A stretch of 64,000 nucleotides of DNA, taken from Bilabrum cf. latius. Lineage: Eukaryota. Made by a program: the position numbers and the translations under genes. Positions 3-64,000 of the stretch are shown here, piece after piece (within the stretch, counting starts at the first letter, position 1; each line of letters opens with the position of its first letter). The stretch spans positions 744,001 to 808,000 of the forward strand of contig OZ237741.1 in NCBI GenBank assembly GCA_965178125.1. Reading direction: 5' to 3'. The notes beneath the pieces are model-generated. The model saw only the letters and a list, made by a program, of their open reading frames with translations, did no database searches and was not told the origin of the DNA.

Positions 3-3000
3 AAGTGGCACCGCAATGCCATCGAGCAGGTTCATGGGTGGGGCGAGATGCTCGATAGCGAGAAGCAGCAGGAGCTGGAGCTGCATGAGTACGGCCTGGT
101 GGCCGGTGTGCAACCCCGGCCTCTCGTGGAATCGAGCAGCCACGGTGCGTCCTCCCGTGGATTTGGCAAGTTTGCCGTTCGCCCAACGTCTGGAGCCGAC
201 AAGTTCGAGCCTGCGCCATTCCGTCCAGCCGCTCGATAGAGCCAGATGCTGCAAGCAGCTGGGCTAGTGGGCGAAGACGGTGCTCTGCAGGCGAAAGATC
301 AGCCCAGGTACCTTCTTGCCACTCCAAAGGGGGGAGGCATCCTGCTCGAGTGTGGTCTGGCAGCCGGTAGCGTCCTGCACCGACGGGCGGTTGGCCTGGT
401 GGGCGAGGATGGCAAGAGCGTGGTACCTATCGACTACGAGTGCCCGGCCTACGACTGGGTGCACTTGGCGGTTGTCGCTGACGCAGATGCAAACGTCAGC
501 ATCTACGCGAATGGGCAATTAGCCACGACGAAGAAGGTGCACTATCCTGCGGGATCGGCGCCGCTGCCTCACTGGACTCTTGGGTCCGAGCGCGGCGCGC
601 CCTTGCGGGCGGACGTGTACGACCTCAGGATGTGGAGGTGTGCCAGGACTGCGGGCGAGATCCGGCGTGACATGATGAGCAAGGTGAACCTGATTTCGGT
701 GCAGCCCATGCTGATCGGGTACTGGAAGCTGGAGGAGGGCTTCGGCAGGTATGCAGCAGACGCATCTGGCCAGCACCACGCGTGCTTCGTCAATGGCCCG
801 CAGTGGATCAAGGTGAAGAAATCGATCGGACCCGGGCCCGCGCAATCGGCCGAATCGAGCGGCGAGTCTACGCCTGTCGTTGCAGCCGCCTCGGGTGCTG
901 GGGCAACTCGAGAGCTGTAGACTGCCTTCGATGCCCTTCCTAGCGTGCCTGTGCTTTCTTGCGTTACTCATAAGTCCACCTTGCAGCTAGGTGACGTTGT
1001 GTCATCCTCGACTTGCGAGCCCGGGGCCGACTGGCGCGAGTTCTCGGGCTACCTGAGGGCCAAGGCGCAATCGGGCGAGGTTGGTGACACGTGGAAGAAG
1101 CCCTTGTCACAGGCTGTAAGTGTGCATTTCAGGCCGTGCGAGCCCGAGAAGGTGACTGAGGCCCTCGATGTGCTTGGCGAGACGGCCGCTCTGGTCGCCC
1201 GGAAGTAGGGCAAGCCTGCTGCCGAACAGGATTCTGCACGGGAACAGCAGGCTAAGCACCACCCAGGAACGGTGCTTCTGGTAGGATACTTGGACTTGCC
1301 AGAGTCGCTGGCCAGGGCAGAGCTAGTGGGTAGGGCGTATCTGAAGAAGGATCTCCCGGACTCGCTTCCGCAAGCTTGTGCCGATCAGTTCGAAGGAATT
1401 CAAGGCGATCCTAGGAGCGACCCAGCAGCAGCAGCCGCCATTGCAAGCTACTGGATGGAGTCCGACGTTGTTGGTGACGCGCTGCACACGACATCACCGA
1501 CTGGCGGGGCCGCATCATCATCGGGGCCCCAGCTGTACCTCGTTGCGTCCGGAGTGACCGCAGGCCCGCCCGATGTGCTGTCGTGGCTGTCCGGCCTTGA
1601 GTTCGAGGGGGAACATCGTAAGGTCAAGCAAGGCGAACCAGATATGGACATGAACAGCACAGAGGTGGACGGTAACGTGTTACGAGGACATTGGAAGGCT
1701 CATCTGGTAGAGCGAATCAAGGTCAGTGGCGAAGGCGATGCCGAGGTTGTCGACCCGAACAGCCAGCTGCGGTTCATCAAGGCCATGTCGCACCCCCGGT
1801 CTACCATCTCAGTGGATGGTCTGACTGCATCGCTGCACAAAGGCAACCCTGCCGATGAGTGGCGCATGGCAACACTGACTTGCTCCGCTGAACCAGACAT
1901 CTCGAAGCTGCAGGACGGAAAGGCACCCGCGAAGGTGGACTTTACTTAGGGCCGCGTGCTGGTCGATGTCACTTTCGCCAGTGGCAATCGTGGCGGTGCC
2001 CGCGTGCATGCGTGTGTTGGAGTAGTATCAGGTGACGCGTCTTCCTCGTCTGCTCCCGGGGACTCCAAGGGATAGGCTGGCTACTTTGCCCACGGCGCGA
2101 CCCGGAAGGAAGGCAGTCGCAACTCTGGGCTGCAGCCTTTTAAGGCAGGAGACACGGTCACTGTGGAGTTGGATACGTAGACCAATTCAGTTCAATTCTT
2201 TGTAAATGACAAGGCAGCGTGCCCGCTCTTGAAGGACCTCAACAGGCCGTCTGGGGGCAAGGGCTACGTTGTGCAGGTCGGCAGCAGGGAGGTTGGAGTG
2301 TTCGCATCGCCTCGGCTCAAGAGCGGCAAGCACACTATCAAGTATGGCTCGAACGTTGGTCGTGGTAACGCGAAGCAATTTTCTGGCCTGTTTGTGCAGG
2401 GCTGCAGGCAAGGGTACGGCGAGCTGCTAGTGTCTGACGGCGAGAGGTATTTCGGCTACTGGAAGAACGGCCGGATGACCGGCACGTACCGCAAGCAGTC
2501 AGGCTCGTACTGCCGGATGGACTTATCCTGCCGTGATGACCCTAGCCGAGCCCGCCGTGCCAAGAAAGAGGACTACGAAGCAAGCTGCATCAAGTTTGGC
2601 GTGGATGAGATCAAGGCGCTGCACAAGTTGTCAAGTGAGCAGCACGCGTCAAAGAAGACCACCGCGTCGCGGCTGCCTGGCCCAGTGGATCCGACTCTGT
2701 ACAAGGTCAAGAAGAAGAAGGACCCAATGTTCAAGTGGTCTGAAATACGCGAGTGGCTACTGCAAACTCGTGGCATGTTTGAGCACGATGCAGCAGAGCT
2801 GGAGGCCAAGGTGCTGTCTTAGGCGCAGGAGGCAGGCATTGTCATGAGCGAGGAGCAAGAGAAGGAAGCGACTGCTGTCGGTGGCGATGTACCACAGGTG
2901 GCCAAGGCGGCGCGCACACACGTGGACAGGCTGAGGCGAACTACCGTGGGGGGCGCGATGCAGGTAATGAGAGAGCAGTTCTTTGTGCTGATGCCCAGCC

Positions 3001-6000
3001 AATGTGGGAACGGCCTAGAGCCTTCCGCGGATCTTACAACCATCTCCTCCAAGTCCTCGCAAGGGGTCGTTCTAGGATCCCGAGGCTTCACTCGCGGTGT
3101 GCACTACTGGGAGGTGTTCGCAGACACGGGGCCCGACATGGGCGATCCCAAGCATCTGTAGACGCTCATGTTCTCTCCTGAGCAGCCCTGGATCCACATT
3201 GGTGTCGCTGAACGGACGCGCCCCATTGAGCGGCAGAGTGGCGAGCGGGGCGGGTCCAACGGTGAGTTCCGGGACTACGGTTTCTCGTCTGACATGATGC
3301 TGCGGTCCAACACGGAGCAGGGCGAGAGGCTGTTCGGGCCCAACATGGTGCCAGGCGACCGCATCGGCGTTCTGCTCAACATGGACGAGGGCAAGGTCAG
3401 CTTCCTGCGTGAGGGGTTCGAGTTTGGCACTTACAAGTTTCAGGACATCGGGCTGGGCTACACCAAAATCCGGTCGGGCGCGATCGGTGGGCCTTCTTGC
3501 CGCGTGCTGTACCCTGCCATTGGGATGCGCAGGGGCGCAGATCCCGTCACGATCCGGTGCGAGCGGTGGGTATCGGCCGCGGGAGAGTCGACGGAGGACA
3601 ATGTCAGGAAGGTGTTGGAGGCCGTCACCCTGCTGTAGAGATGGCAGCGGCCGCCTGGGCAGCCCGTGAGGCTGCCACGATCCGTCCTGACAGAAGCCAT
3701 GCACCGGTACAACTTGATGGCCACGCAGCCCTGGATCCGCGTGGCTCGCACCCGCGGGTAGGTGCGCCTGCCGTTCGACTAGAGTGAGGACAGCTGCACC
3801 GCGGTAGTGAGGGCGACGCAAGGCACCAGCCTGTCCACGGGAGGAAGGCTGCGAGAGCTCCGCGGCGGCGATCGCATTAAAGTCAAGGGCACGCTGGCGA
3901 CGGTGGTGGGCGTGAACAGGGGCAAGCTGTGGGTGCGGCGCGATGGCGTTGGGGAGCAGGCGTGGTACTTGGAACGAGACGAGATCGAGGAGGTGCAGGA
4001 GCGTGAGCAGTTCGTGAAGGACGAGCACGAGGCCGACCTCATGGTGAAGCGGCTGCGAGCGGAGATCGGTGACAGCAAGACGGACGCTGCTAGTGGGAGG
4101 TCCAAGGAGCAGCTGGCAGCCATGGGTAAGGGCGAGGTGGCTGCGGATGAGCAGACCTTCATGCAGTGGGTGAACGACGACTGCTGGTCTGTCGAGCGAG
4201 ATGAAGAGCTGGTCAAGGTGGTAAACGCGCAATGCGATCAGCGCGGCTGCGACCCAGCCAACCTGCAGTTGACCCCCGCCGACTCCCAGTTCTCCGAGAT
4301 GCTGCAAGACCCCCATCAGATGGGCCGGGTGCGAGCTCGATTCTGCGTGCTCCTTGCTTTGAATCGGAGGCTGGAGAAGCTACTGCCGCTCGTCGACTTG
4401 AGCGCAACCCAGGCCGGTGGGTTTGTGCCAACCGGCGACCCTCGCCGGATCCGCTTCTCCTCCTCGCTCGGCAGGCGGGTCGCGGCACTGCGCGGTCTCT
4501 GCTTCATGCGCACCAAGCTGGAGCTGTGGAACACGGTCATCCGAGACACGGCCCTGTACACGCAACCCGAGCAGGAGAACATGACCAAGGCCTCCGAGGT
4601 GCCCAACATCACCGTCGACACGGTCACGTACCCCGTGGACCGGCTGGTGATGCTCAAGTCGTACAAGGAAAGGCTGGAGCGATCTGTATTTGGCCAGCTG
4701 ATCGGGCAGTCGTACCAGTGGTCAGACGCAGGCTGGAGGCGTAACTACTCGTATTCGGAAGACGGCGGGCAGCAGCGAAATTTCTTCGTCAAGTTCGCCA
4801 ACCAGAAGGCCGTGGACCAGGGCGGGCCCTACCGCGCAGTGCTTGAGAAGGCGGCCGGCACAGAGGCAGCGGGCCCGCTTCGGCTGCTGGTCCCTAGCCG
4901 GAAGGACATTGAGCAAAAGCGTGGCCAGCACAACGCGGAGTACTTTGTATTCAACTCGTTCCCCGACACTGATAAAGGGCAGCACGGCCCGGGAGGAGAC
5001 AGTGCTCTCGAGGCCGAGGAGAGCCTGAGGGCCGCGGTACAGCTGGAGCTAGACAGGGAGCGGGCTGCCAAGATGTCGGCCAGCAAGGGGTCAGGCTCTG
5101 CCGCTGCTGCTGCAGCCGACGCCTCTGCCTTGGGTCGTCTCTCGGATGGGGCGCAGGCACCTGGCTATGGCGACGGCGTGTTCACGACTAGCGGCGGGGA
5201 GCACACTCGCTGGCACGACGGGGAGTACTTCTTCTTGGGTCGGCTGGTGGGCGCCTGCATCAGGCACCAGGTGATGGTGCCTGTCTCGATCGCGCCGTCA
5301 GTGTTCCGGTTCTTGGTGCTGCAGCACATTAGGAGGGAGGACCTAGCCGTGCATGACCCCAAGCTGGAGAGGGCGATCAAGACCCTCGAGGTGTACCTTC
5401 CCTCGCAGGCGCCGGAGGGGGCCTCGGGTGACGGGGCGGCGGCAGCTGGAGGGGCTGCCTCAGGGGCCGGTGCGGACGATGACCCGTCCATGGTGGAGGC
5501 ACAGGAGCAGAGCCTGCGAGACGCGGCCAGCAACGTGGTGGATCTGCTGCTGGAGCGAGTGCCCGATGTGCCCACGGGTCTGCATGCAGCAGCCAGGCAG
5601 CTCAGGCCCGAGCAGGTGTCATCGTTCGTGGACGTGTGCGTGGAGACTGCGGTGAGGGCAGCTGCCCGGCCCCAGCAGGCCTTCATGGAGGGCCTCTGCT
5701 CCGTTGTTCCCCGAGATCTGCTGGCCCTCTTCACCGCGGACGAGATGGAGAACCTTGTGTGCGGGGCCAGGAGCGTGAACGTAGCGGTGCTGCAGCGCAT
5801 TGCGGTGTGCAGCGAGGGCATGACGCGGTCGAGCGCGCAGGTGCAGTGGCTATTCGAGCTGCTGCGGGAGTGGGACGAGGAGCAGCGGAGGGACTTCTTG
5901 GACTTCGTGGCAGCGCGCAGGAGGCTGGCCCAGGGCGCCGACGCGCAGATGCAGGCCTTCCAGATCGAGAAGCTCAAGCCGCTCAGGGAGAGCACCAACG

Positions 6001-6131
6001 TGGACGGGATGCTGCCCAAGAGCGCCACTTGCTTCTTCCGACTGAAGCTGCCCGAGTATTCATCAAAGGAAGTTCTCAAAGAGCGCATGCTGAACGCGCT
6101 TGCCGAGACTGATACAATGGATGACGAGTGA
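3..6131 (+). CDS. HECT-type E3 ubiquitin ligase with LamG/concanavalin-like and SPRY domains; 5'-truncated, >2040 aa, read with TAG=Gln
   Basis: ORF-track pieces 48, 246, 945, 1272, 2229, 2844, 3168 and 3807 share one frame, separated only by 11 TAG codons (237, 918, 1206, 1947, 2073, 2178, 2820, 3159, 3636, 3759, 3780); ends TGA. LamG-like (WVHLAVV..YANG, YWKLEEG), SPRY-like (GVHYWEV, GDRIGVLLNMDEG), HECT (DQGGPYR; LPKSATCFFRLKLPEYSS with catalytic Cys). Confidence 0.9.
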
Positions 6132-6277: not shown

Positions 6278-8038
6278 ATGGCGATGAGCATGGGAAAGAT
6301 TGCAGCCGCCCCTGGCGGCGTCAAATCCAAGAAAGGAAAAGCGAAGAAGACTGGCCTTACGCTGGGGGAATTTCTCGACCGGGGTGACTTTACCGGCGCT
6401 GTGGCGCTACTAGAGTTCAAGATCCGGACCGGCGACACGGATGAGACCACGTTGCCTTGGCTTGCGTACTGTGCGTTCCACCGGGGCGACTACAAGAAAG
6501 CCTTGAGCGTTTACGAGCAGATCGAGAAGGCAGGTGATTCCACACCGGAGCTTGGCGTGTACAAAGCTTGTAGTTTATTCTATTTAGGCCGGTTTGCAGA
6601 GGCAGAAGAACTGTTGGCGGCAGCACCGAGCGCTGACCTCCGAAACCGGGTGATGTTCCATATTGCAAACAGAGTTGGGGACGAGGATCTGCTTCGAGAG
6701 CGGCATGGCACTCTCCGATTAACGACTGAGGACCAGCTTGCGCTTGCTGCCGTGCATTATCAGCGCGAGCACTACCAGCAGGCCACCGACGTGTACAAAC
6801 GGCTCCTCTTGGAAAACCCGAGCAGCGTGGCACTCAACGTTTACATCGCCATGTGCTACTACAAGCTAGATTATTACGACGTATCACTAGAAATTCTTGG
6901 CACGTACCTGGAGCATTTTCCCCGGTCGGCGGTGGCCATCAACTTGAAGGCTTGCAACCACTACAAGATGTACAATGGGAAGAGCGCCGAGGCGGACCTA
7001 AAGGAGCTTGGGGGAGACGTCGCGGCACAGCTGGGACTGAGAGGAGCAGGAGCAGGCAGTGGGGCAGGCAGCGCTGTCAGTGGAGCGGGGGCCGGCGGGA
7101 GCTCCGCTGCCGCCGCCGCCACCAACATGCTGGAGGAGAGCGATCTGATCCGGCACAATCTCGTCGTGTTTAGGGGGGGTGAGGGGGCAGTGAGGGTGCT
7201 CAAGCCACTGGCCGCGCACCTGTCCGAGGCTCGCCTGAACCTTTGCGTGTACCACCTGCGCCAGGGGGACGTCAAGTCGGCCCAGCGCGTCATTGAGGAG
7301 AAGGTGGCCACCACCGTGCCCGAGTTCCAGCTGGCGGGTGTGATTCATTCGGAGCTCGGCCAGAGGAACGGCAGCAAAGAGGACCTGCAGAAGGCCCAGC
7401 AGTATTTTCAGAGGGTAGGCATGTCGCCCGAGGACAAGGACACGATCTCCGGAAGGCAGTGCGCAGCCAGCCTCTACATCCTCATGCGGGACTTCTACAA
7501 TGCAAACATATACCTGGAGAGCATAAAGTCGTTCATGTACAACGACGACACCTTCAACTGGAACTACGGGATCGCACAGGCCGCAGAGGGGCACTACCTC
7601 GAGGCGGAGCAGAGCCTGCAGCGGATCACTGACCCCTCCATGACCCAGGACTTCGTGTACCTCAGCTGGCTGGCACGGTGCTTCATCATGAACGGTAAGG
7701 CCAAGCTCGCCTGGGAGCTGTACCTCCGCCTCGAGAGCACCAATGCAGACGCGCTGAGTCTCCTGCAGCTCATCGCCGCGGATAGCTACAAGATGGGCGC
7801 TTTCCTGGTGGCAGCCAAGGCCTTTGACGTGTTGGAGAAGATCGACCCCGACCCAGAGTATTGGGAGGGCAAGCGGGGTGCATGTGTTGGGGTGTTCCAG
7901 CTCGTGTGCGCGGAGCAAGAACCGGTGGAGAGTCTGAGAGAGGTGTTCGACATGCTGTCGACGACAGCCAACCCGCAGCAGAAGCACATCGTGGAGGTAA
8001 TCCGGCAGTATGCCGAGTCGCAGGGTTGGCCTTTGTGA
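6278..8038 (+). CDS. IFT56: Intraflagellar transport protein 56 (TTC26), 586 aa
   Basis: Single exon, no TAG, ends TGA. Characteristic motifs ALNVYIAMCYYKLDYYDVS, NLKACN, LIRHNLVVF, YWEGKRGACVGVFQ. Confidence 0.95.
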   Translation: MAMSMGKIAAAPGGVKSKKGKAKKTGLTLGEFLDRGDFTGAVALLEFKIRTGDTDETTLPWLAYCAFHRGDYKKALSVYEQIEKAGDSTPELGVYKACSLFYLGRFAEAEELLAAAPSADLRNRVMFHIANRVGDEDLLRERHGTLRLTTEDQLALAAVHYQREHYQQATDVYKRLLLENPSSVALNVYIAMCYYKLDYYDVSLEILGTYLEHFPRSAVAINLKACNHYKMYNGKSAEADLKELGGDVAAQLGLRGAGAGSGAGSAVSGAGAGGSSAAAAATNMLEESDLIRHNLVVFRGGEGAVRVLKPLAAHLSEARLNLCVYHLRQGDVKSAQRVIEEKVATTVPEFQLAGVIHSELGQRNGSKEDLQKAQQYFQRVGMSPEDKDTISGRQCAASLYILMRDFYNANIYLESIKSFMYNDDTFNWNYGIAQAAEGHYLEAEQSLQRITDPSMTQDFVYLSWLARCFIMNGKAKLAWELYLRLESTNADALSLLQLIAADSYKMGAFLVAAKAFDVLEKIDPDPEYWEGKRGACVGVFQLVCAEQEPVESLREVFDMLSTTANPQQKHIVEVIRQYAESQGWPL

Positions 8039-8405: not shown

Positions 8406-10119
8406 ATGTCAAAGGCTGGTCCTTCCTGTTTTATTTTGATAGGATGTCTTGTTTTCTCGCACGCAATACGACTCAGAAGCTAGAGGCAGATCTCAATAAG
8501 CAATGAGGCTGTCCGAGAACCTTCAATTTACTAGTAAGCCAATCTAAATGAAGTATCAGTGCTTACGCATCCTGCTTGGCAAGTCTGTGCGTATGGATTT
8601 CTAGTCTCTTGCCGCAGGATTCCTCTTGTGAAATCTGTTGTGACCTAGAGGCGTCGTCAGGTACTGCTGCAGGAGCTCAGGTTCAGGGAGAGAGCTAGCG
8701 GCCATCATGCTTCAATGTCGAGCTCCACAGTTGAAATGTCTCACAAATAGTAGCATTCATCATCTGGCGCGTCCCAAGTGGCCTCTACTGCGGGAAAAGG
8801 CCAGCAAACGAGCATGCAGGAAATCGCTCTGACGCAATAGATGTAAGGTATATCCAGTCTTAAATTCGTCCTGACTAGCTTGATGCATGCGACCTAGCTG
8901 CAAAATGCAAATATTGTAGGGCTACATTCACCGCAGATTGTCCCAGAAGCGCTTGGCGACATACTACGGACAGATCACCATTGGCACCGGCTCTGGGGCA
9001 AGACCATTCAAGGTGCTCTTCGACACTGGTTCCTGCGAGTTCTGGGTGCCGTCTTCGGCGTGCCACACGGAATCTTGCAAAGGCCATCACGGTTTTGATC
9101 CCTAGCTGGACGAGTCCCCGGAGCAGGACACGGTGGTTCCCGCCGAGGTCCGAGACAAGCTGATGAGCGTGCAGTACCTGTCCGGCAAGATCGCTGGCAC
9201 GCTTGTCGCCAGCGACGTGCAAATTGCCAATCTCGTGGTGGACGACTAGATCTTCGAGATCGCCACGGAAGTCGACGTGCCTCTGCTCAGCTAGGTGGAG
9301 TGGGACGGTATCCTTGGGTTCGCCTATGGCTCCGAGCAGATGCTCAAGCAGGGCGTGCTCCCTTTCTTCGACTCCATCATGAAGCAGAGACTCCTGCACA
9401 GCAACGTATTCGGGTACTCGATCGGGCCATAGGGAGGCGCCATGTCCATAGGCGGCGTGGACTGGTCTCTAGTGGCGGGGGTGGAGCAGGGCGGGCCATA
9501 CGTCAAGAGCATGGAGGGCGAGGGGTCTCCGTTCCAGTGGGCGAAAGTGGTGAATCTGGGGTACTGGACCGTGGGTCTGCTGGACATCGAGCTGGTGTAT
9601 CCTGCGGGAGAGACGGTCAGCACTGGCGTGTGCGGGGGCGAGAAGGATGGCATGTGCCGTGGGATCGTGGACACCGGCACGTACCTCGTGTATGGGCCCA
9701 GGCAGCACGTGGCAGGCCCACTGAGGGACCTGCAGGGCACTGGGTGCAACGGGTTCGGCGGGCTGCCCTCCGTGGTGTTTGTGCTGCAGGGGTCAGACGG
9801 GCCCGACTCCAAGGTCCGCGTGAGGCTGGAGCCGAGGCAGTACTCGCTCATCTTCCACGTGCCCGCGGAGGGAGTGGATGACCAGGAGTGCGACGAGGCC
9901 ATGAAGCAGCATCCCGATGGGAAGGGCATCGACAGCGGCAGGTGCCCCAAGGAGTGCGTCACCGGCATCGCACCGGACGATGACGTCATATGGACATTCG
10001 GACAGGTCATGCTGCGGTCGTTCTACACGGTGTTCGATCGTGACCAGAACCGGATCGGGCTGGCCCTTGCACAGGGCATCCGCGACGAGAGCGGCAAGGT
10101 GCGCGAGCTGATTGCGTGA
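8406..10119 (+). CDS. Pepsin-family (A1) aspartic protease precursor, about 511 aa; exons 8406-8533, 8618-8842, 8937-10119
   Basis: Hydrophobic N-terminus, YYGQITIG, catalytic FDTGS and IVDTGT, DGILGFAY, FYTVFDRDQNRIGLA. GT-AG introns of 84 and 94 nt restore the frame; 10 in-frame TAG; ends TGA. Confidence 0.9.
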
Positions 10120-48100: not shown

Positions 48101-48489
48101 GGGGCTCGGGAAGTCGCTGGGATGGCGACGGGAGTGATGAGGACGAGGAGGACAGAGCTGGATTTCGAGGCGGTGGCCGGCGCGGTGCCACAGCGATGGC
48201 TGGCGGGTCCTCGTGGAAATCTGGCCCCGGCGCGAGCAAGGGCAAGTCGGGCGCGTCTAGCGGTGGTGCTGGGGACAAGCCGGTGCGAAGGTGTGGCATA
48301 TGCAGGCAGGTGGGGCACGACAGAAGGCAGTGTCCACAGGCGCCCTAGGACAGCGCCTCCAGGAAGGCAACGAAGTCAGGCGGGGGCAAAGGCGGCAAGT
48401 CCAAAGCTAAGAAGACGAAAAAGAAGAAGACGGGGGGGACTACAGGTGGATTCCAGATTGGCACCCAATTCTTCGAGGACTTCGACTGA
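45111..48489 (+). CDS. TOP3A: DNA topoisomerase III alpha with two GRF zinc fingers and a CCHC knuckle, 1094 aa; exons 45111-45203, 45298-48489
   Basis: VAEKNSVAK, WLDCDREGE, SYGPCQFPTLGFVVER, catalytic SYPRTET, AHPPIHP, IGTDAT; 94-nt intron; 2 TAG; ends TGA. Confidence 0.95.
47569..48001 (+). repeat. Identical 76-bp direct repeat (47569-47644 and 47926-48001) encoding the GRF zinc-finger cores
   Basis: Base-by-base comparison shows no mismatch. Confidence 0.95.
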
Positions 48490-48626
48490 CCACTCGCTGC
48501 CGGATGTGCTTGTAGTGAATGAACTGCGCCAGACCTGAATTGCACAAGAAGTATCCCAGTCCATGCCTATCTCGGATTCTGCTCAAATCCATAGAAACTA
48601 TCCGGATCAGATTCGGATAGATTTGG

Positions 48627-51600: not shown

Positions 51601-52760
51601 TTGGCTCGCTTACCGAACCGCAAAGTCGACAGGCTCTCCATCTCGTTGTACGAGGAGGGCGAGCAGCAGATGATCAGGCTGGTCCGACTATTGCCGCCGA
51701 TGGACTCCTGCAGGACGCGTGTCAGCTTCGAGTCGCGGTAGGGGATGTGGGAGCTCCGCCCGTCTGTGAGGGCGTTGATCACATTGCCCAGGGCACTGAG
51801 GCTCCTGTTAATGTTCTGGGCCTCCTCCATCTGCTTGCCGGTGACGCCCGTCTTCTTGGCCATCTCACTGCCGGCCAGGTCGACAAGCACGAGCCTTGAT
51901 CTCTTGACCTCGCCCGACTCCGTGTTGGTCTGCGTGATGTTAATGCTGAACAGGCTGTGGGACCTGCTGCTGCCTTCGTTCATCCCCGTCGCGGCAACTG
52001 CCCTGTTGGAGTCCCCCTGCTGCATCACCATGAGCATCTCTTCGGCCGAAATCACAGAGACGGTGGTTGCGTCTTGCACGTAGACGCCGAGCTTCGGATC
52101 CTCGCGGACCGGCAGGTTGGTCTTACTAGAATCCAGAAGATCGCGGATTTTTTCGAGGTAGATCTCCACAAAGCTGCACTCGACGCTGAACTCGATACTC
52201 TCATCGGCCTCCATCGCATGCGTGAAGACGTCCTGAGCCACGCGAGGGATGACACCCTGCATGTCTGAATCCGAAGTATCTGGACCAGACATTGTGTGGC
52301 TCTTGCCTGCTCCCGTTTGACCGTACGCAAGCACGCAGCCATTGTAGCCTTGAAATACAGCATCGACCACAGGTTTGGCTGAAGAAGCATACACGTCCAG
52401 CTATGTTGACTCAGATGGGAACACTCGGTCAAAATTGAACTTATACTAGGCCTTGTCCAGTGTCTGCAATACATTAAAGTAGCATCTCGCTGTGTCCGGG
52501 TGTGCACGAACCGTTGCAGATCGCGGAGACGTTGGTCGATCAAATCAAAAACTCACATTCAGGACCACTTGCTGGTGATTTCCCTTCGGCATGTAGACGC
52601 ATGTCTTTGCAGATAACTTCAATTCTTTTTTGTTCAATGGCCTGAATCGGCAAGTCACGGCAATACGATCGCCGATGCCAGCTTTGCTTGGTGTTCCGTC
52701 GCCGCTGTCCTCTCCCATTGGCTTGCGCGGAGTCGAGCTCCCTGCGCCTGACGCCGCCAT
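48627..52760 (-). CDS. Kinesin (kinesin-1-like motor) with coiled coil, DysF/peroxin-ferlin-like domain and ankyrin repeats, about 1346 aa; exons 52557-52760, 48627-52463
   Basis: AYGQTGAGKS, SSRSH, LVDLAGSE, HIPYRDSKLTR; Trp-rich LPDGWHWLCEW..DKHGWEF..VRRRKWIR; ankyrin TPLHYAA. 93-nt intron; 10 TAG; ends TGA. Confidence 0.9.
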
Positions 52761-52942: not shown

Positions 52943-55585
52943 ATGTTGCCGTCTGCCGGTTTCCTACCGCTACTAAAGCCTCGGGGGTTGACTTCGCGCG
53001 CGCTGCTCAACCAGGCAATCAGGTAGCTTCGGCTTCGCGAATGTCGCATCAAACTGGGTCATACTGGGACGCTAGATGCATTCGCTGAAGGTTTACTCGT
53101 AGCTGCGGTGGGCCATGGAACGAAACAGATTGATTCCATCAATCTTGGTGGTGCGGCAGGCAAGGAGTACCTTGCGACGGTGCGGCTTGGGATTCGGACT
53201 TCAACCGATGACGTGTGCGGGGACACGTTGATGCACACACCTGTCCAGGGAATTTCTGAGAGCGATATTTCGTCTGCTTTGTCAGAAATAGGCAATGGTT
53301 TCGTTTTCTAGGAGCCGCCTAAATTTTCTGCCCTGAAAGTGAAAGGCGAGCGGGCGTACAACTTGGCAAGGGCCGGCAAACAGCTGCCCGAGTCGATGGA
53401 GAAGCGCCGCGTGCTCATCGAAAATATCGCCGTGCTTGACTACACTTCTCCTGGTTCATCGCACTCGAGCGTTCCACCGCTAGAGCAGTGGGAGGCGGAG
53501 TGTCGGACCCAGCTGGAGGCCACCAAGGGCAAGCTGTGCCCCGGCGTGGCCGCTTCGTTCGGGGAACAGTCTGGTTGCATGGATGCGGTGCTGCGGGTCC
53601 AATGCGGGCGGGGCGTGTACGTGCGATCGATTGCAAGGGATATTGGGGAGATTTTAGGCGTCGGTGGGTGCTTGGTTCGGCTGGTCCGGACGAAGTCTGA
53701 CGGTTTCAGCCTATCCGATGCGGTGCGGCTGGACGACTTGTCGAGTACAGACACGATGTTCGAGGCAATGGCACCACCGGGACTTCCTTTCTTACACTCA
53801 TCAAAAGCGTCTACGAGTGTAGATGTTGATGATAATGCTGCCATTCTGGAGCTGCTTGGGCGTCCGTAGCACCCCTCGAGTAGCTCTGCCGATATTGCTG
53901 GGCCTTCCGAGTATGTGGCGCTGTACGATGAGGCGAGCATATCTTAGCGGGTGACGACTGGCTATCATGCAACGAGGCATGCGTCGTATGGGCTCCGCGT
54001 GCAGCAGATGCGCGATGCAGGTGCAGGTGCAGGTGCAGGTGCAGGTGCAGGTGCAGGTGCAGGTGCAGGTGCAGGCGCAGGTGCAGGTGCAGGTGCAGGT
54101 GCAGGTGCAGGCGCAGGCGCAGGTGCAGGTGCAGGTGCAGGCGCGAGCAGCTAGTCAGCGGACAACAGTGGCAGTTGTCATGTGACGAGTGGGATCGTGA
54201 TACCGCTTCGGGTACACCGCGTGGTGGCTCCACTCTTGAATCCCAACAATGGAATGTGGTCGGCCTCCGCTGCGGGCCAGACCTTACAGCAAGCAAAGCG
54301 TAGTACCGCCTCTAGCTCTGAAGATGGCATGGACCAGCTATAGCTCATGGACGAATGTACGGAACGACGACGCAAGCTGTTTAGATTGATGTCTCGCGGT
54401 CGTATCAAGCAGAGCGGGCTGGTGGGCCTGGTGCAGCAAGGGCAGGAGCAGGTCAGCATGGTTTCATCCTTCTTGTAGCAGCTGCCAAAGCACAGCAAGA
54501 AGGATGGTGCGGGTGATGGGGGCAAGTCTGGCACACGTGTCCGTCGCAGTGAGGGTAGCAGCGCAGGTGGCTGCGCATCGAAGCCTGTACCCATCTTTGG
54601 GAGATTTCAAGCTCAAAGTTTGGGCGATGGCAATGGCGATGATGCCTCGCCTAGCAAGCCTAGTGAAGATGGGGCAGATGAGCCCACGCTCCGGTTGCTC
54701 GCATCGTCCACGACGGAAATGCATCGATTGGCTTGGGGAGCCCAGCAAGTGATCGAGCGCAAGCTGGCGAAGTTTCTCAAGCCGCACGCCGGCCAGGACG
54801 GTAGCAAGCCGGGGCCCGCCGGAGCGCCTGCTCCGGAAGACGTGGCCACCAGCGTTGCGGAGTCTTTGCACGCTGTCGTGATGCGAGTAGTGATGTAGGG
54901 CATTGCAGCAGGCGTGCATGTGCCTGACTCTGGTGTCAGTGATGGCGGTGACGGCTGTGCAGAGACGGACGAAAATAGCCTGGAAGCGCAGGGAGCGTGC
55001 CCCTTACTTCCAACAGATGAGATAGTGATGAAAGCGCTTCCAATCGCTGGGTTGGATCGAGACTCTGAGCTCACGTGGAGCTTGCTCAAGCGTGCAGATG
55101 CATCAGTGAGCCGTGCTATCGTGGAGGTGAACAGCCGGTGGAGGCGAGGCTTCGGAGGCAGTCTGGCGGATGCAACTCGTTACCCCCTCCTGGCAGTAGG
55201 GGTGCACGAGCTATAGCCTGGGGAGAATGAATGTGGCTCGAGTGCGGAGTTAGACGAGTTGCGTCTGGCGCACCTGTCGGGACAGCTGGGTGCAGCGGGG
55301 CAGTGGGTCAGCCCGCAGCAAGCTAGGATGCACCGGCGAGGCAAGGGCAAGGGCAAGGGACGGAAGGGCGCGGCATTGCGCAGGGCAGGCAAGAACTCGG
55401 ATTTGGTGCTAGGCGATGGGGAAGAGCCCCTAGCGGCTGCACTGTGGGCCTGGCTGCATGCACCGCTCAAGGAGGCCATCGGCACGGTAGCTGGCATGGC
55501 GGGACATCTAGCGCAGCTGGAGTATAGCGAGGGCGTGCGCCGAGCAAAGTTGATGGAAAGGCTGAAGGCTGATGCGAAGCCGTGA
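52943..55585 (+). CDS. truB: tRNA pseudouridine-55 synthase TruB-like with long C-terminal extension, 880 aa
   Basis: KPRGLTS, KLGHTGTLD (catalytic Asp), KEYLATVRLG, [TAG]EPPKFSALKVKGERAY, CGRGVYVRSIARDIG, LVRT. 9 TAG; first non-TAG stop is the TGA ending at 55585. Confidence 0.85.
54017..54142 (+). repeat. Hexanucleotide microsatellite (GCAGGY)n, about 21 units, in frame as (Ala-Gly)n
   Basis: Directly visible. Confidence 0.97.
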
Positions 55586-55752: not shown

Positions 55753-58700
55753 ATGGAAGAAGCTGCAAGGGTGCGCCGAGAGGCAGTCCAGCAGCAATGC
55801 AACGACATAATGCAAGAATCTCAGCAAAGCAAGGCGCGGCTGGATGGATTCATTGAAGCCATTAACAGGATGTTTAACGTGTGGCGATAGAATCTAGAAG
55901 TACTCGCAGCATCTCCAGCTGATACCACTGCCTCAGCAACTATGCTGAGCACATCAATGGCTGGCGGAATACAGCAGATCGGCCAGCGAGTCCCAGCCGA
56001 GAAAACTATTCTCGATGACATGGAAAATCGGCTTCGGATCCTCTTAACCCAACCTGGGGCCGTAGCAAGTGACTCGCTATCTGGGGCATTTGTTGATACA
56101 TCTAGCTCAACGTCAACGATTGGCGCACTGCAAGATTCACAAGCACTCGCGGCCAGGACTAGAGCGGCCGCAGAGGCGAGGCGCAAGGGCAAAGACTCCA
56201 ACGAGCTGTTGCAGTCGAATGTTGATAAAGCTCGCAATACATTGGATAGTGCCTGGGAGTCATTTAGATGCTATAAAAAGCTTGTCGATGCGGTGAAAGA
56301 GGATCCATCCCGCCCACCACCGATACCAGACGCAGAGGATACTACTGCGAAGTCAAACTCTGCAGCAAGCGGGGCCCCAGTTTCACCGTCATCTGCATCA
56401 GATCAAGAGGTTGCTCCAGCAGGCGCCTCCTCTGCAGGAAGCGCGCTGGCAGAGGGCGCAGCCGGGACACAGGCGGGTGGTGCTGGCACTTCCGCCGCAG
56501 AGCAAGCTGTCGCCGCCAAAGAAGAGATCCAGCGGCAGCTGCTGCGTGCTTCCGTGTAGTCTAAAGGAGTGGAGGTTCGAGAGCGTATCGCAGCAGCCAG
56601 GGCTCGTCGGATGGAGCGCAAGGCAGAACGGATCGAGCGCAAGGCGGCCAGATAGGCGGTGAAGACGTGCACCACGATGCCGACGGTGGCGGGTGCAGGA
56701 CTCGAGGGAACCGAAATGCCCGCTGCTGCAGCGACAGCACGATCAGAAGCTGCCTCAAGCTTGGCACCAGCGCCAGCATCGGCTCCCGCTCCCGCTCCCG
56801 CTCCCGCTCCCGCTCCCGCTCCCTCAGCGGCTTCCTTTGCCTCGACCAGCCCCGCAGACGAGGCGCTGGGAACCGCGGTGCAAGAGGCCGGAGCTCTGGG
56901 AGCCTATGGGGTGATCGATGAGTCACCTGCACAGAGTACTCCTGGGCCCACGGTGGCAGAGGCCTACGGCAGCATCGATGGTGGAGAAGGAGCGGCGCAA
57001 GGCGGGGCGTCCTCATCCGGCGCAGCAACTTCGCATGGAGGAGTGGTCGGCGCAGCGACGTACGAGCCACTGGTTGGTGCCGAGGCCGGTATTCAAGAGC
57101 ATCCTGTGAAAGGCATGACATCGGCTGGGATCAGCTATGCCTACGAAGTCTTCGAGGAGGAGGACCCCACGGTGCTGCGGAAAGCTCCTGATGACCCGGT
57201 AGCAGCTGTTGCTGTATCACGCGGACAGGCCGCCAAGGTCGCGAGCGGGTACGATGACGCTATTGATGACCCCAGTGATTCAGCTGTAGTACAGGCGGGT
57301 GCTGTGCGAGTCGGTGGGTATGACGCAATCGACATCATTGACGGCAGCGTGCAGCATGCTGGCCTCTCGTCTGCTCGTGCATGCGACCCTATCCCATCCG
57401 CAGCTAAAGCAGACCCCTCATCCGGTTCCGGTCCTTCTGCAGATTCAACTCCATCGAGAGCAGTCGGTGCATCGCAAGGCCGGGAGGGTTTCAACGAGAA
57501 ATGGTAGAGGGTGATCGACAGGGATGTCACCACACCCGCAGAGCAGCTGGCGCAGGCAGTCGACTTGCACAAGCTCGCGGTGAGCTTCACGGACCGGGCG
57601 CGATTTCTAGCAGAGCTCATCGCTGCGGAGCGCACCATGTACGAGGACCAGAGGAGCATCAGGGCGCTGAATGTTGGTGGTGTGGCTGGAGGTGACAAGC
57701 ACCTAGTTGGGTCCGTGTTCATCAAGTATGCGGTGGACAGCGATGGCCTCTATGGAGGTGATGCTCCTGCTCAGAAGAGCGCTGCTCACGAGTTGAAGGG
57801 CCTGCGAGCCATTCGAACTGCAGTGGCCAGGTCGCAGCGAGCCTAGCCCGGAACTGCAGAGTGGGAGCACCCCGACTGCCAAGGCAAGCGCACGGGCAGG
57901 CGAAACCTGGCCAAGGAGCTGCACGTGCCGCTGTTCGCGCTGGTAGATTTTGCGGGGCACCGGCTCGTTGCTACTGCGCTGCTGCCGGTGGGCAAAAACA
58001 CTCTCGTCTACGGCTCTGCAGATGCCGGCCGCACCGTCCACAGCGATGATCCAGTGGCTGCAGATGCCATGCAGCAGGCAGGCTCACTGCTCGGGCTGAA
58101 GCCGCACGTTGTCGGGAGCGGGGTCGGACAACTCGGAGCCAAAGAGCTGGCTGCGTGCTGTGACATTGAGGTGCACAAGGGCAAGGATGACAGGCTGTAC
58201 GTGCTCGACACAGCTCGCCTTCTGCCCCCCGAGGAGCCCCACAGGGAAGTGTCGAGTGTGGTCGTGCCGAGCGATCCCTGGCGGTCTCTCGCCTAGCATC
58301 GCGGGCACAGGACCACAAGGATGCAAGTCGCAGCGCAGGCACTCGCCGACTCTGCAGACCCCGTGGAAGACGATGATGACTTTGGGCTCAGCGAAAGCAC
58401 CAGCGAGCCGAAGATGCCCATGATACAGGCGTACAAAATGACTGGCAGGTGGTCCGGCGTCACTTTGCTCCGCCAGGGCACGGGCGGGAAGCCCAACCAT
58501 CGTCTGACTGACATTCTCGCCAACTAGCCCGCATGGCATGCCACCGCTCGCCGCCTCATTGCGAATGGCCGGGTCCAGGAGTCCGACATTTTTGCTCCTC
58601 CGGGTGCCAAGATTGGGCAGTACCCCGCTGGCGGCATGGTGACTGGGAGCGCGGTGCTCGTGGGCAGCGACGACAAGGCAAGGCACCTGGTACGGCTGAT

Positions 58701-61700
58701 TCGGGAGGAGGCGCTGCGGGTGTGGACGAGGCCAATCTCGTCGGATGCATTCACCGGGTTTGGCATCCACAACCACAGGATTCACAACGCCGAGGCTCGG
58801 GGCCTATCGCAAGCCCTCATTGAGGAAAGGATCCCTGTCTTCGCGAATGAGCTGGCCACCCACAAGAAGGACGTGACCAATGGCAGGCAGCTTGTCGACC
58901 TCATGCATGCTGCTGGGCTGAACGTGCGCTGGATCGCTCTCGTGTATATGGCAACGATGGTAAACGTCAAGAGGCTGAGGCAGAGCTCGTCATCGTTGTC
59001 CAGCGATGGGTTCGTGGCGAATCTTCTCTTGACTGAGATGATCTCGCGCTCGATCAAATTAATCATTCGAGATGTAATGCGAGAAGCATTGCCCAAGGCA
59101 GTAGCGCCTGCCACTTCTGCTGGCGATGCACCGCCAAGCCTACGTCGGCATGTCTCCATGAATACATAGGCTGGGCACTGCCAGACTCGTCTGCAGGAAG
59201 TCATTTGTGAGGTACTCAACGACGTCTTTGGCAACAGCGAGCGATCACTAAGCATGTGGACCTCCTAGCTCAAGGCCCAGATGATGCTGCGCTTCGGCTC
59301 CTACCGTATGCCTTCGCATTGGTTTCATGACGGCTCCATGGCTCGGTACGGCGAGACGATTTTCTTCTCTTCGCAGCATTCCCACCCGCATGACGACATG
59401 CGTGGCAGGGTGCTGCTGCCAGCCCTGCTTGGCTCCACAATGCGTGCCACTGGCGTCGCGCTGAAGCCAGCTATATACGCAAGGGCGATCCAAGATCCTG
59501 GTGCGTTCTTCTCGAGACCGACCCCTTTTACGCTGGATGATTTCGACTGCGTTTCTTCCAAGTCAAAGTCTATTCAAACGGCAGACAGTGTGCTCGAGGC
59601 TCTCAAGGCGGTCACCGGTGTCACCAATACTCTCAGCGAGGACATCAGTACCGCTAGCTCCGGCACCAACGTGCCTGCGCTTAAGTCGCTGATGGCTCAG
59701 ACAGGCGCAAAACTCAACATGCGGGATGAAGGGGACAAAATGCTTGCACAAATTCCCATGCCATACACCGTGAAGCCGTCCGTGTCGGCCAAAGAACTTG
59801 CCGCTGATGCTCCCATCGAGAAGCCGACATCTGCCGCTGGTGGCCAGCTGCCCGAGTCGGAAGCGCCAGCTTGGCAGCAGTACAGCCATATGTGCTAGGA
59901 TGTGTTTGGCTCAGAGTCGCAGGAGGCAGTGGCTGCCGGGCTGCGTCACTCTGAGGAGCTCTTCAGAGAGGGCCGGTCGATGGCCGCATGTGCCGTGGCT
60001 GAAAGGGCGGCTGCACCCGTGCTCAGCAACCCCAGTGCACCAACCGAGAGTGTAGTATCTATTTTGGCCTGGATTGCTCGGTGCAAAGAGCAGTCTTGCC
60101 TGCTGGGCGATGCACTCGAACGCTACCAGCATGCGCTGTGGCGGCTCCGATGCGAGTACGGGACCGGTTCAGTCAAGCAACAGCACTCAGTCAAGGAGAA
60201 ACAGATGACCCCAGATCCCAGCGATATCCCAGAAGAGTACAGGGATAAGTCATTTGATATTCACAAGTATTATGCCGAAGCGCAGCAGTTGAAAGATGAA
60301 GCGTAGAAGGGGCTGACCCCGCGCGATCCCCGGTGGAAGAACGCCATTGTCAAGCTGCAAGAAGACATGGCAATGATCAAGGAGAGACAACGGAATTTTA
60401 TGGTGACGCAAAAGCATATTAAACCCAGGGAGCACGCCGCGACGACGGGGTTTATGGCGCATCCCGCGCAGCAGGTCCTGGTAGAGTCGGTGGTTCGACT
60501 GTATCTTAAGGCTGGCCTCCTCTCGCAGCACCAGGCAAACGCCAACAAGTACAAGTTTGCGCTCAGCAAGCTTCCATCCCCTATAGACAAGCAGGTGCTA
60601 GGAATCGTGTACCAGGTTCCCCACGAGCTCATGCGAGCTGCCCTTCCGCTGAGCGCTCTGGAGGTGAGGGTCTTTGACACGCCTAGAGCCGCGTACAATC
60701 ACAGGGGTCCGAGACCAAAATGGCACGACGGGGACACGTACAGCAGCATTATGGTGATCAACGCGGCCAAGAGCCGCGGCGTGGATCCTGTGATCCAGCC
60801 CGCCAGTGCGGCCCCGCTGAGCGCCAGAGATGCTACAATTCGAGCGTAGCGCCAGCACCCTGTGTTCGGAGCCATCGAGGCTGGCACGCATGACCTTCCG
60901 TGCCAGGAGCGTACCGTCCTTGAACTGAAGCGGCGCCTAGATATGGCTGGACCAGATTTGCTAGAACGCATGGCAAGCCGCCCGCTGAGCTCATGGAACC
61001 TGGCCTCCAAGATCACCTCAAGCAAACTTGAAACGATCAGGCGCGCTGGCAAAAGCTCAGCTACAACGAGTGAGTATGTGGACAGCAGAGCCAGAGCGCA
61101 ATGGATCTTCAGCGTGGCTCCTCTATTGGTACCATCGTGCATGATCATGCGGCAGCCGCTCCCACAACCACGCGCCTCTCAGCCGCCGAGCCTACAGCGT
61201 GACGCCTCCCACGGGGAGGACGTTTCCCACGTTGGATTCCCCGCCAGTAGAGAGGAGCAGCCAGATGTCAGTACCAGCGAAGATGCTCAGCACCCACAGG
61301 TTGCACAGGATCGTTCCTCACAGGCTGTTCCACTGCTAGACCCAACTCAGTTCGTAGAGCTGCCTCGCTCTGCACCACCGGCACCACTGCCGCCGGTAGC
61401 ACCATCACCATCAGCCCAACAGTCCCCATTCGGCGGTCAGGTAGCGCCGAACCAACTGCCTGGTGTCCCTGATGAGCCTGCCAGCGGTGCCGGCACTTCG
61501 GCGGCGTCCTCAGGGTAGGATGCCGCCAGGTTGGTCGAGTCCAATAGATCGCATGGTATAGCCACTCCGGGACTCCCGAGCTCGGCGGCCCCGCCTCCTG
61601 TGGGTCAGACACCGCCGACAGCGGCCCAGAAGATGATCGCGGAGCGACGGCAGGCTGTCCTGGCAAAGGTAGCCGAGCAGAAGAGAAAGGTAGCCGCGGC

Positions 61701-62100
61701 CAAGGCCAAACAGCCCTTTTTCCGATGCGACCAGCACTCTAAGTCCCCACATGACGGCGTTGTCAGGTATCACATTGCATGGGACATCAGCACAATCAAG
61801 TCGCCCACAGCACCGTGCAGTCCAGTCGGGGACGCGTGGATTCGATTCAGCAGGATCAGGCCGCTGATGCTGACTTGCAAGCAGCAGCTACCGCCCGATG
61901 CAGGCCGAATGATGGTGCGGCTCCCCGATGGTGGCTTGTTCGAGATCTTCAAGACCGACTAGCGAGACACCAAGGACTTCAGGATGAGCACGTTCCACCG
62001 CTTCGGGATCTAGATCATCGCGTATGCCAAAAGAGACAAGCGCTGTCTCCCCGCTCTGCAGGCTTTACTGCTCGGGATTCAGGGGTCGCATATGCAGTGA
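55753..62100 (+). CDS. CLU (clustered mitochondria)-domain protein with CLU-central, TPR-like and putative C-terminal PX-like region, about 2115 aa
   Basis: FNEKW[TAG], GGVAGGDK, AQKSAAHELKGL, PLFALVDFAGHRL, DIEVHKGKDDRLYVLDTARLLPPE, ISSDAFTGF, MHAAGLNVR. One frame across 15 TAG; ends TGA. Confidence 0.85.
56782..56823 (+). repeat. (GCTCCC)n microsatellite, in frame as (Ala-Pro)n
   Basis: Directly visible. Confidence 0.9.
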
Positions 62101-62399: not shown

Positions 62400-63425
62400 T
62401 CACTGCCTGCCATGTAATGCTGCATTAATTACATCGTCGATCTGGCGCTGCGCCGCATCGAGCTCTGTGACCTGCTGCGCCCCGCTATCGGCCAACCCGA
62501 TGCTGCTAGATTCCTGCGCCGCTCGCTAAGTCAGGGCACGGCGGTACTGGTTGGAGAGTTCGATGGCTTGTTCTTCCTCTAGAACGTCGTATATGTCGAT
62601 ACACTTGTGTAAGGGGTGCCTCCCACGGGAGAAGCCGGGGCTAGTGGCGTTCCATGGCCACTCCTAGTCCCGTGCTGTTGCCAGGCGCAAGCACACTGCA
62701 GCGGAAACGGCGGGATGCAGCAGCTTCGACTCGCTGTGCATCTCTTGGAACATCCTAGCGGTGCCTTTGTCCTGCCTGGGATCTTCTCGCACGGCGCGCT
62801 GCATGTCAGTGTCAAGCGGCCCCGGGGAAAACGAGAGAAACCTCGTCGAGTGACCGGGGCGCTCCGACCAGACCGCTGCCTCAGCGGCTGCACAATCCAA
62901 AGCAGCAACCCTAGCAGCTTTTCCTGCTGAGTAAATGCTCCATGATGGAAATAGTGCTGGTTGCTCTGCAGCAAGGGAGCTCACATTCACCACTGTAGTT
63001 CGCACAGACTAGCTTTGCCTACTTGCAAGCTTTTGAGAGGTAGACACAACCCCACCGACCAATTGAATAAAACTCCCTACATTAACTCCGAACTACTCGT
63101 CGATATCGCGCCTTGCCAACTCAGTGATCTTACCAATTGGCTAGATGGAGCCATGGTTGAGGATTGCAAGTAAGTCAAGGACATCTGCTGGATTCGAGCT
63201 CATCACTCTTGCTTGAAAACTATCAAGCACTTCCTTGACATGTGCGTCACTACTTAAATCCCCAACCAAAGTGATAGCGTTGTGAAAATCACAAACTGTG
63301 CCTGATGTACGACCAAGGTGCGCCATCGCACATGCTGAGTTCAACAGGTGCTAGAATTGCACCAAAATTTCCTTTCCATACCCTCTCCCGCAACCAGTCA
63401 GTAGACCAAATATATTTTTATTCAT
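62400..63425 (-). CDS. Sepiapterin reductase-like short-chain dehydrogenase/reductase, 341 aa
   Basis: LTGCGRGYG, ILNHGS, VVNVSSLAA, YSAGKAAR (YxxxK), SPGPLDTDMQ; 6 TAG; ends TGA. Confidence 0.88.
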
Positions 63426-63576
63426 TCCATTGCAGACTTTTCTAGTATTGCTCACAATGTACGAGTAATGTTCCCTGCAAAATGCAGTCGTCACATAGCC
63501 ACCACGAGTTTCAGTGACGTTTCCATCACTATAAGAACAAGCGGAGCAGTGCAGTTACTTCTGTGTAGAAAGTACC

Positions 63577-64000
63577 ATGGATAAGGGTCTGGGAAGCGCA
63601 GATGCTGTGTTGGATTTCATCTTCAACCCGGCTGGCATGCCATCATCGGTTCCGAAAGGCCCCCTCCCTGATATGCCTGCTATCACGGCCGATAAAGCCA
63701 AAATTGACCGCGATGGTGACTTTCCTATCAATGAAGAGGGTAGGAGGCTCTAGGTGGAGGGTGTAAAGGCAGCTCAACAAGGAGATATTCCAGCCGCTAT
63801 CAAACACTTTTCAGCGGCTCTTACCGCTAATCCTGAGAATCCGTTACTGTTAAACGACAGAGCTCAGGCCTTAAGGGATAATGAAAATTACGATGATTCC
63901 TAGAAAGACATTGACGCTGCTGTTGCGCTAATGGAAAGTAAGTACGATGGCAAAAGACCAGTAGACTGGCCGCTACAGTCGAGAGTAGTGCGGTCCCAGC
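63577..64000 (+). CDS. TPR protein, TTC36-like; 3'-truncated
   Basis: DAVLDFIFNP, EGVKAAQQGD, LNDRAQALR; 2 TAG (63751, 63901). Missing from the ORF track. Confidence 0.75.

Follow-up and report, generated by a model that had tools for sequence, protein, structure and literature searches.

In the DNA analysed here, a 64-kb stretch of an assembled eukaryotic genome (positions 744,001 to 808,000 of contig OZ237741.1, assembly GCA_965178125.1; "the window" below means this whole stretch of 64,000 nucleotides (nt)), it is very probable that UAG is read as glutamine, that UGA terminates every gene seen, and that UAA does not serve as a sense codon or, in the sample, as a terminator. The sense reading of TAG as glutamine had been proposed in a first-pass annotation made from the letters of the window, and it is supported here by three lines of evidence: TAG codons are retained in spliced RNA, TAG falls on a glutamine that is invariant in four protein families, and glutamine, CAG or CAA stands opposite TAG in close relatives.

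In-frame TAG codons and reading-frame statistics

In-frame codons were counted in three sets of open reading frames (ORFs), comprising 28 non-overlapping ORFs, 23 ORFs (18,450 codons) and the 19 best-supported coding sequences (CDS; 17,675 codons). The first set holds 119 in-frame TAG codons and the second 113, in agreement with the approximately 120 reported in the first-pass annotation, and the second set contains neither TAA nor TGA in frame, as had also been reported. TAG is present in 18 of the 23 ORFs, which becomes the 18 of 22 genes given earlier once the two pieces of an OvoA-like gene are merged. The six sites that had been quoted individually all prove, by coordinate, to be in-frame TAG codons: codon 121 of a pepsin-like protease (9247-9249), codon 12 of an ING-type protein (28926-28928), codon 527 of a topoisomerase III-alpha-like protein (Top3; 46876-46878), codon 123 of a TruB pseudouridine synthase (53309-53311), codon 585 of a CLU (clustered mitochondria) homologue (57505-57507), and a codon of a kinesin-1-like gene (52401-52403, minus strand, in exon 2 of a one-intron gene). 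The presence of in-frame TAG is thus confirmed.

Counted in frames 0, 1 and 2 of the 19 CDS, TAG occurs 108, 139 and 114 times, TGA 0, 319 and 339 times, and TAA 0, 44 and 73 times. The effect on ORF length is equally specific to TAG. Under the standard code, ORFs of at least 300 amino acids (aa) total 36 kb and the longest has 1001 aa, while reading TAG as sense brings the total to 94.5 kb, with the longest ORFs reaching 2327, 2117 and 2043 aa. Treating TAA as sense changes almost nothing (the longest ORF still has 1001 aa), and treating TGA as sense produces many short spurious frames, the longest of 1019 aa. Moreover, Pfam domain matches run across TAG codons, including Asp (25-394) over four TAGs and adh_short (8-215) over another four, as well as TruB_N, Topoisom_bac and CLU.

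Glutamine is encoded in the 23 ORFs by 113 TAG, 624 CAG and 169 CAA codons, UAG making up approximately 12% of the total. The density of TAG reaches 11-18 per 1000 codons in the genes for a sepiapterin-reductase-like SDR, the pepsin-like protease, a TmcB-like membrane protein and TruB. The TAG-free genes are the OvoA-like gene (GC content at third codon positions 0.89, the maximum in the window), IFT56, an EF-hand gene and an ankyrin gene, codon bias or conservation being strongest in these genes. Such an absence of TAG from biased or conserved genes fits a minor codon read by a low-abundance tRNA.

Termination at UGA and the status of UAA

Complete ORFs number 27 of the 28, the remaining one running off the window, and all 27 end in TGA and none in TAA. 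The TGA of IFT56 falls at the C-terminus common to its homologues, and a relative of the TmcB-like protein with 94% identity ends at the same residue as the window gene. Read-through of TGA was also considered and rejected: the long ORFs that continue in frame 3' of some TGAs are antisense artefacts according to their codon-position GC pattern, and no coding signal follows TGA.

The alternative that survives best, although we regard it as improbable, is an ambiguous code in which UAG would be glutamine inside genes and a context-dependent stop elsewhere, of the kind seen in Condylostoma, karyorelict ciliates, Blastocrithidia and Amoebophrya sp. ex Karlodinium veneficum. Codes of this type are known (PMC12005148; this and the other articles cited were drawn on in part), and our ORFs were defined by TGA and TAA, so that a terminal TAG could hide in the tail of an ORF. 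Two ORFs do have a TAG placed one codon ahead of the terminal TGA, namely the TmcB-like gene (18711-18719) and the kinesin gene (48627-48635), and in the SDR a TAG occupies codon 254, close to the position at which human SPR ends. TAG is nevertheless not enriched towards 3' ends, and is if anything commoner in the 5' three-fifths of genes (31, 25, 25, 11 and 16 by quintile from 5' to 3', compared with 117, 107, 111, 134 and 135 for CAG). The true C-terminus is independently known for a minority of the genes. The penultimate TAG of the TmcB-like gene faces lysine in the 94% relative that shares its end, and a TGA falling one codon past a real TAG stop would arise by coincidence at approximately 1-3% per gene. 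TGA is present at the end of all 27 ORFs, and in none of them is a terminal TAG required. Genome-wide, an ambiguous code is unlikely.

Marginally less probable again is a code of the table-6 type, in which both UAA and UAG would be glutamine and TAA would be rare merely through the GC richness of the genome. Among variant nuclear codes this type is the commonest (PMC5304391, PMC11687900), and the lack of TAA at the ends of the 27 ORFs is as expected with UGA as the sole terminator. Against it, no in-frame TAA occurs in 17,675-18,450 codons, compared with the 44 and 73 found in the other two frames, although approximately 30 would be expected of a glutamine codon from the CAA:CAG ratio of 169:624 and the 113 TAG codons. 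GC bias has not removed CAA, so it would not have removed TAA either, and a metagenomic locus from a close relative (L001, described below) likewise has no in-frame TAA. The deficit of TAA, together with its exclusion from frame 0 in the manner of TGA, therefore indicates that TAA is not a sense codon in this window, and to that extent the earlier claim that UAG alone has been reassigned stands. The same exclusion fits a stop codon or an unassigned codon alike.

TAG codons in spliced RNA

Eight public sequencing runs from four studies contain the stretch 52001-62000, and four of them, one from each study (X1, X5, X6 and X7), were compared with the window over 44001-64000, where they gave zero substitution or indel rows. 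Contigs of X5 and X7, from two studies, jump exactly over 52464-52556, where CT..AC on the plus strand is GT..AG for the minus-strand kinesin gene, and exactly over 45204-45297 (GT..AG) in the Top3 gene. This exact skipping of GT..AG introns means that both runs contain spliced RNA; the runs carry no RNA record, and their RNA nature was recognised from these spliced contigs. The kinesin intron was first inferred from an alignment of the motor domain and then matched by the contigs, and the Top3 intron is new from the contigs, its exon 1 (ending at 45203) encoding the missing start of the Toprim domain (MPSRIVLHVAEK...).

The pieces from X5 cover 48639-52463 joined to 52557-52814, 56833-62269, and 62255-63494 with 0 other letters, a coverage that includes kinesin exon 2 from 48639, most of CLU and the whole SDR without differences. 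All TAG codons covered by the spliced X5 and X7 contigs are unchanged, as judged from contigs rather than raw reads, and UAG is present in spliced mRNA. The first-pass annotation had named CAG in mRNA or reads at the TAG sites as the finding that would speak against its proposal; as far as the contigs show, there is no CAG at these sites. The kinesin RNA contigs stop at 48639 and 48645, short of the last codons, and we read these stops as an assembly break near the convergent 3' end of Top3 and not as evidence of termination.

It is accordingly hard to credit that the TAGs are untranslated, whether as assembly errors, sites of UAG-to-CAG RNA editing, pseudogene lesions or parts of unrecognised introns: no evidence in support of any of these was found, the four runs, each from a different study, agree with the window, the TAGs are kept in spliced RNA contigs, the frames are interrupted by TAG only and never by TAA or TGA, and relatives have TAG at the same positions or at glutamine positions.

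Identity of the residue inserted at UAG

Searches against distant homologues were run with TAG translated as X, which kept the choice of residue neutral. Codon 123 of TruB falls in a column that is glutamine in 145 of 148 homologues, and glutamine is also present there in the structures from M. tuberculosis, human (TRUB1) and T. maritima. At codon 585 of CLU, 11 of 13 rows have glutamine, with glutamate in one and a gap in one; codon 121 of the pepsin-like protease faces glutamine in 5/5 displayed pepsins and chymosins, and X21 of the kinesin (52401-52403) in 3/3 displayed kinesin-1 motors. Four of the conserved glutamine sites that the first-pass annotation had listed by family pattern, those in kinesin, TruB, pepsin and CLU, are therefore upheld by alignment. 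The homologue alignment for ING covered the PHD finger only, and the TAG at 28926-28928 is outside the aligned part. Among alignable sites, no TAG occupies a column in which any residue but glutamine is conserved.

Close relatives provide a second view of the same question. A search with IFT56 gave proteins of 88% and 99% identity, each starting at an internal methionine; comparison of the TmcB-like gene with shorter proteins gave 14 fragments at 71-99% identity; a metagenome scan, in which 28 pattern matches were screened, gave the single locus L001 (1463 nt, 65% identity); and the TruB search added three fragments. The set used for residue assignment comprises the 14 TmcB fragments, the one metagenome locus and the three TruB fragments, at 63-99% identity. 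Seventeen TAG sites yielded 26 observations, made up of 16 glutamines, one TAG and nine other residues, and one more site aligned with a gap. Ordinary glutamine codons are kept at 80% in these alignments, and no other residue faces glutamine above 3.9%. Glutamine explains the observations with a log-likelihood of -42.8 and the runner-up, lysine, with one of -90.6, a difference of 48 units.

The metagenomic locus L001 itself has three in-frame TAGs, and neither TAA nor TGA occurs in frame in its 487 codons. The TAGs of the locus face CAG, CAG and TAG in the window, and window TAGs face CAG, CAA, TAG, AGT and AAA in L001, so that exchange among TAG, CAG and CAA runs in both directions. In addition, seven of the relatives' fragments, which are standard-code predictions, end exactly at a window TAG, and of six other fragments ending within the TmcB-like gene, five end at a window glutamine. 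The sharing of TAG and its exchange with glutamine codons in relatives therefore indicate a code common to the clade, over at least three levels of divergence, and the UAG trait is common to a clade of environmental relatives.

Several observations weigh against the reading of UAG as glutamine with UGA as the terminator of the genes seen. The nine non-glutamine observations in close relatives are T, L, P, T, K, S, K, E and R, and glutamine faces TAG sites at 64% compared with the 80% for ordinary glutamine codons, TAG sites thus being less conserved. Codon 527 of Top3, also listed in the first-pass annotation as a conserved glutamine, gives a mixed result, with lysine in TOP3A and glutamine in TOP3B. 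Among other distant comparisons, pepsin X182 is asparagine in 5/5 displayed sequences, X73 is arginine or aspartate and X136 is tyrosine; human SPR has A, G, Y and G opposite SDR X25, X95, X111 and X139; and TruB X28 is variable (L, I, R, K or A). The TAG sites that face other residues in distant homologues are in variable columns or loops. With regard to termination, the two TAGs one codon ahead of a terminal TGA exceed chance and only the TmcB-like case is explained, by the lysine in its relative. The sample is 64 kb in size, and rare TAG terminators or sense TAA codons may occur elsewhere in the genome.

Single sites facing K, E, R, T, L, P or S in relatives, or K in TOP3A, are also what could be cited for a different residue, such as leucine (as in the rhizarian exLh), serine (Scotinosphaera), glutamate, lysine, tyrosine (some ciliates) or pyrrolysine, a reading to which we give almost no weight in view of the 48 log-likelihood units in favour of glutamine and the placement of TAG in four near-invariant glutamine columns and in no conserved column of another kind.

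Relation to known variant codes

The pattern in which TAG alone becomes glutamine corresponds to what we take to be NCBI translation table 15. The codon table itself is already known, from Iotanema, Protocruzia and some phyllopharyngean ciliates. In Iotanema spirale (Fornicata), UAG is glutamine and UAA and UGA are stops, UAA being the primary terminator (Panek et al. 2017, PMC5304391). This organism is an anaerobic endobiont known from a transcriptome, for which a tRNA-Gln(CUA) is the predicted decoder and a T32G change in eRF1 is described (PMC5304391). It resembles the present case in being a non-ciliate flagellate in which UAG alone has moved to glutamine and UAA is not sense. It differs in that UAA is its main stop, compared with 27/27 UGA and 0 UAA here, and in its anaerobic life, compared with a window of 60% GC that encodes CLU and an OvoA-like protein, probably an oxygen-dependent enzyme.

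A UAG-only change to glutamine has also been reported in ciliates, namely Protocruzia tuzeti and two lineages of phyllopharyngeans (McGowan et al. 2024, PMC11687900). These share an identical codon table with the window, in that TAG is glutamine and neither TAA nor TGA is sense; unlike them, the window is a 64-kb multigene locus of 60% GC with introns of 93-94 nt. Ciliate macronuclear DNA is expected to be AT-rich, and gene-sized or with very short introns. We judge a ciliate origin unlikely; in the IFT56 tree described below, which had no ciliate sequence, the window protein falls in no labelled group.

Codes in which both UAA and UAG are glutamine occur in many ciliates, Hexamita, Streblomastix, Ulvophyceae (including Dasycladales) and Amoeboaphelidium protococcarum (PMC11687900, PMC6299283). 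They share with the window a change from stop to glutamine and UGA as the working terminator, and differ in that UAA is glutamine there, compared with 0 TAA in place of approximately 30 here. Amoeboaphelidium was considered as a candidate through the kinesin, whose best PDB match is from Neurospora, and it does not fit in that it is reported to use both TAG and TAA (PMC6299283). Amoebophrya sp. ex Karlodinium veneficum has an AT-rich genome and uses all three stops as sense codons contextually (PMC12005148, PMC6394959). In common with our data are unedited in-frame stops in mRNA, UAG as probable glutamine and UGA as terminator, and the organism was found in mixed host-parasite data; its AT richness and three sense stops, compared with TAG alone in GC-rich DNA here, led us to reject it as a match (PMC12005148). 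UAG-only changes to other residues are described for the rhizarian exLh (leucine) and Scotinosphaera (serine) (PMC11687900); these likewise decouple the meanings of UAG and UAA, but towards leucine or serine, whereas glutamine is strongly favoured in the window.

Taxonomic position

Beyond the close relatives, the best matches to IFT56 show 48-54% identity to animals, Gloeochaete, Mesostigma and Tribonema alike, and IFT56 is thus about equally far from animals, green algae, a glaucophyte and an ochrophyte. A FastTree phylogeny placed the window protein together with one close sequence (P0014) on a long branch, next to a sequence without a label and outside the labelled groups; the tree comprised 42 sequences picked from 120, with no ciliate, fungal, rhizarian, alveolate or excavate labels, and so gives no placement. 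We use the term flagellate provisionally, from the presence of the IFT56 gene only.

The stretch 52001-62000 was matched without differences in runs deposited under four different organism names in the four studies, and in two of these studies sister runs contain next to none of it. Such a distribution would fit a parasite, a symbiont or a culture contaminant.

In the literature covered, which left most subscription journals and supplements outside its scope, a GC-rich non-ciliate lineage with UAG-to-glutamine reassignment other than Iotanema was not found. We therefore put forward tentatively, as a possibility that falls somewhat short of probable, that the window represents an undescribed clade of aerobic, GC-rich, non-ciliate flagellates with an independent UAG-only change to glutamine and at least three divergent members represented in public data, in which UGA would be the sole working stop and UAA essentially unused, either as an unassigned codon or as a vestigial stop. 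If true, this would be a stop-codon economy unlike that of Iotanema, whose main stop is UAA.

Proposed mechanism and significance

We propose that the window is nuclear DNA of a GC-rich, intron-poor eukaryote whose cytoplasmic translation would read UAG as glutamine. The decoder would be a dedicated tRNA-Gln with the anticodon CUA, expected to pair with UAG and not with UAA, and it would probably have derived from tRNA-Gln(CUG), which is one mutation away. A corresponding eRF1 would be predicted to be without efficient recognition of UAG. The expectations for the tRNA and eRF1 draw on established knowledge as set out in PMC5304391. With up to 26 UAG codons per gene, and with UAG at its observed share of glutamine codons, decoding has to be near-complete, and this argues for a true reassignment rather than leaky read-through.

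Departures from the standard nuclear code are rare, and a split between the meanings of UAG and UAA is even rarer; the decoupled cases named in PMC11687900 comprise a fornicate, a rhizarian, a single green-algal genus and a small number of ciliate lineages. A GC-rich, gene-dense, non-ciliate genomic example with graded relatives would allow the capture of UAG to be dated and traced through the turnover of TAG and CAG. It would also test the order of the eRF1 and tRNA changes and reveal the fate of UAA once UGA does all termination. In practical terms, gene calling under the standard code breaks most genes of the organism, and public collections contain proteins of its relatives as fragments terminating at TAG.

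Gene content of the window and other observations

The GC content of the window is 55-64% (approximately 60% overall), and it holds approximately 22 protein-coding genes on both strands. Named by Pfam are genes for a HECT/SPRY ligase, IFT56, a pepsin-like protease, a TmcB-like membrane protein, a kinase, a family-X DNA polymerase, an ING-type PHD protein, a CD36-family protein, an ankyrin protein, an OvoA-like sulfoxide synthase, a leucine-rich-repeat protein, topoisomerase III-alpha with GRF fingers, kinesin-1 with ankyrin repeats, bacterial-type TruB, CLU and a sepiapterin-reductase-like SDR. ARAGORN found no tRNA genes in the 64 kb, and no Rfam family reached its gathering score within the window. 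Coordinates of the principal features are collected in Table 1.

Table 1. Principal genes and introns of the window, with their in-frame TAG codons (coordinates are window positions)
Feature	Coordinates	Strand	Remarks
HECT/SPRY ubiquitin-ligase ORF	3..6131	+	5' end open; 11 in-frame TAG; terminal TGA
IFT56 (TTC26)	6278..8038	+	zero TAG; TGA at conserved C-terminus serves as terminator control
Pepsin-like aspartyl protease	8887..10119	+	5 TAG; TAG 9247-9249 at conserved Gln column
TmcB-like membrane protein, 2260 aa	11937..18719	+	26 in-frame TAG; main test gene against close relatives
Family-X DNA polymerase ORF	25153..28374	-	7 TAG
Top3 intron (GT..AG), 94 nt	45204..45297	+	absent from RNA contigs of runs X5 and X7, which jump over it
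Topoisomerase III-alpha-like gene, exon 2 (exon 1 ends 45203)	45298..48489	+	2 TAG; TAG 46876-46878
Kinesin-1-like gene, exon 2, C-terminal ankyrin repeats	48627..52463	-	10 TAG; TAG 52401-52403 at motor-domain Gln
Kinesin intron (GT..AG), 93 nt	52464..52556	-	in-frame TGA inside; skipped by X5 and X7 contigs
Kinesin exon 1	ATG at 52760 to 52557	-	5' of intron 52464..52556
TruB pseudouridine synthase, bacterial-type, long C-terminal extension	52943..55585	+	9 TAG
CLU (clustered mitochondria) homologue	55753..62100	+	15 TAG; TAG 57505-57507
Sepiapterin-reductase-like SDR	62400..63425	-	6 TAG, 4 within adh_short domain match

The OvoA-like gene (DinB, FGE-sulfatase and methyltransferase domains; 38404-41700, minus strand) lies in two ORFs, an N-terminal one at 41200-41700 and the main one at 38404-40623, and the approximately 580 nt between them presumably represent one or more introns. 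Top3 and kinesin are convergent and separated by a gap of only 137 nt (48490-48626), and their 3' untranslated regions must therefore be very short or overlapping.

TruB is nearest to the bacterial TruB proteins, with its best PDB match in M. tuberculosis, and has a C-terminal extension of approximately 600 aa without a known domain; it may be an organelle-targeted enzyme. Two in-frame hexanucleotide microsatellites, (TGCAGG)21 at 54016-54141, which encodes a long Ala-Gly run in TruB, and (GCTCCC)7 at 56782-56823, which encodes a long Ala-Pro run in CLU, break every contig assembly. At the 3' end of TruB (55340-55359), a short repeat coding for Lys-Gly shows an approximately four-fold rise in k-mer depth in run X1 (191.8 compared with approximately 43) and many chimeric joints, which indicates that the repeat is present elsewhere in the genome. 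Longer tandem units occur in two further places: a 21-nt repeat at 10459-10557, in an unannotated ORF, encodes the heptad SVMQKDI, and a 24-nt repeat at 26261-26361, in the polymerase X gene, encodes a repeat of the form SGMEGSxA.

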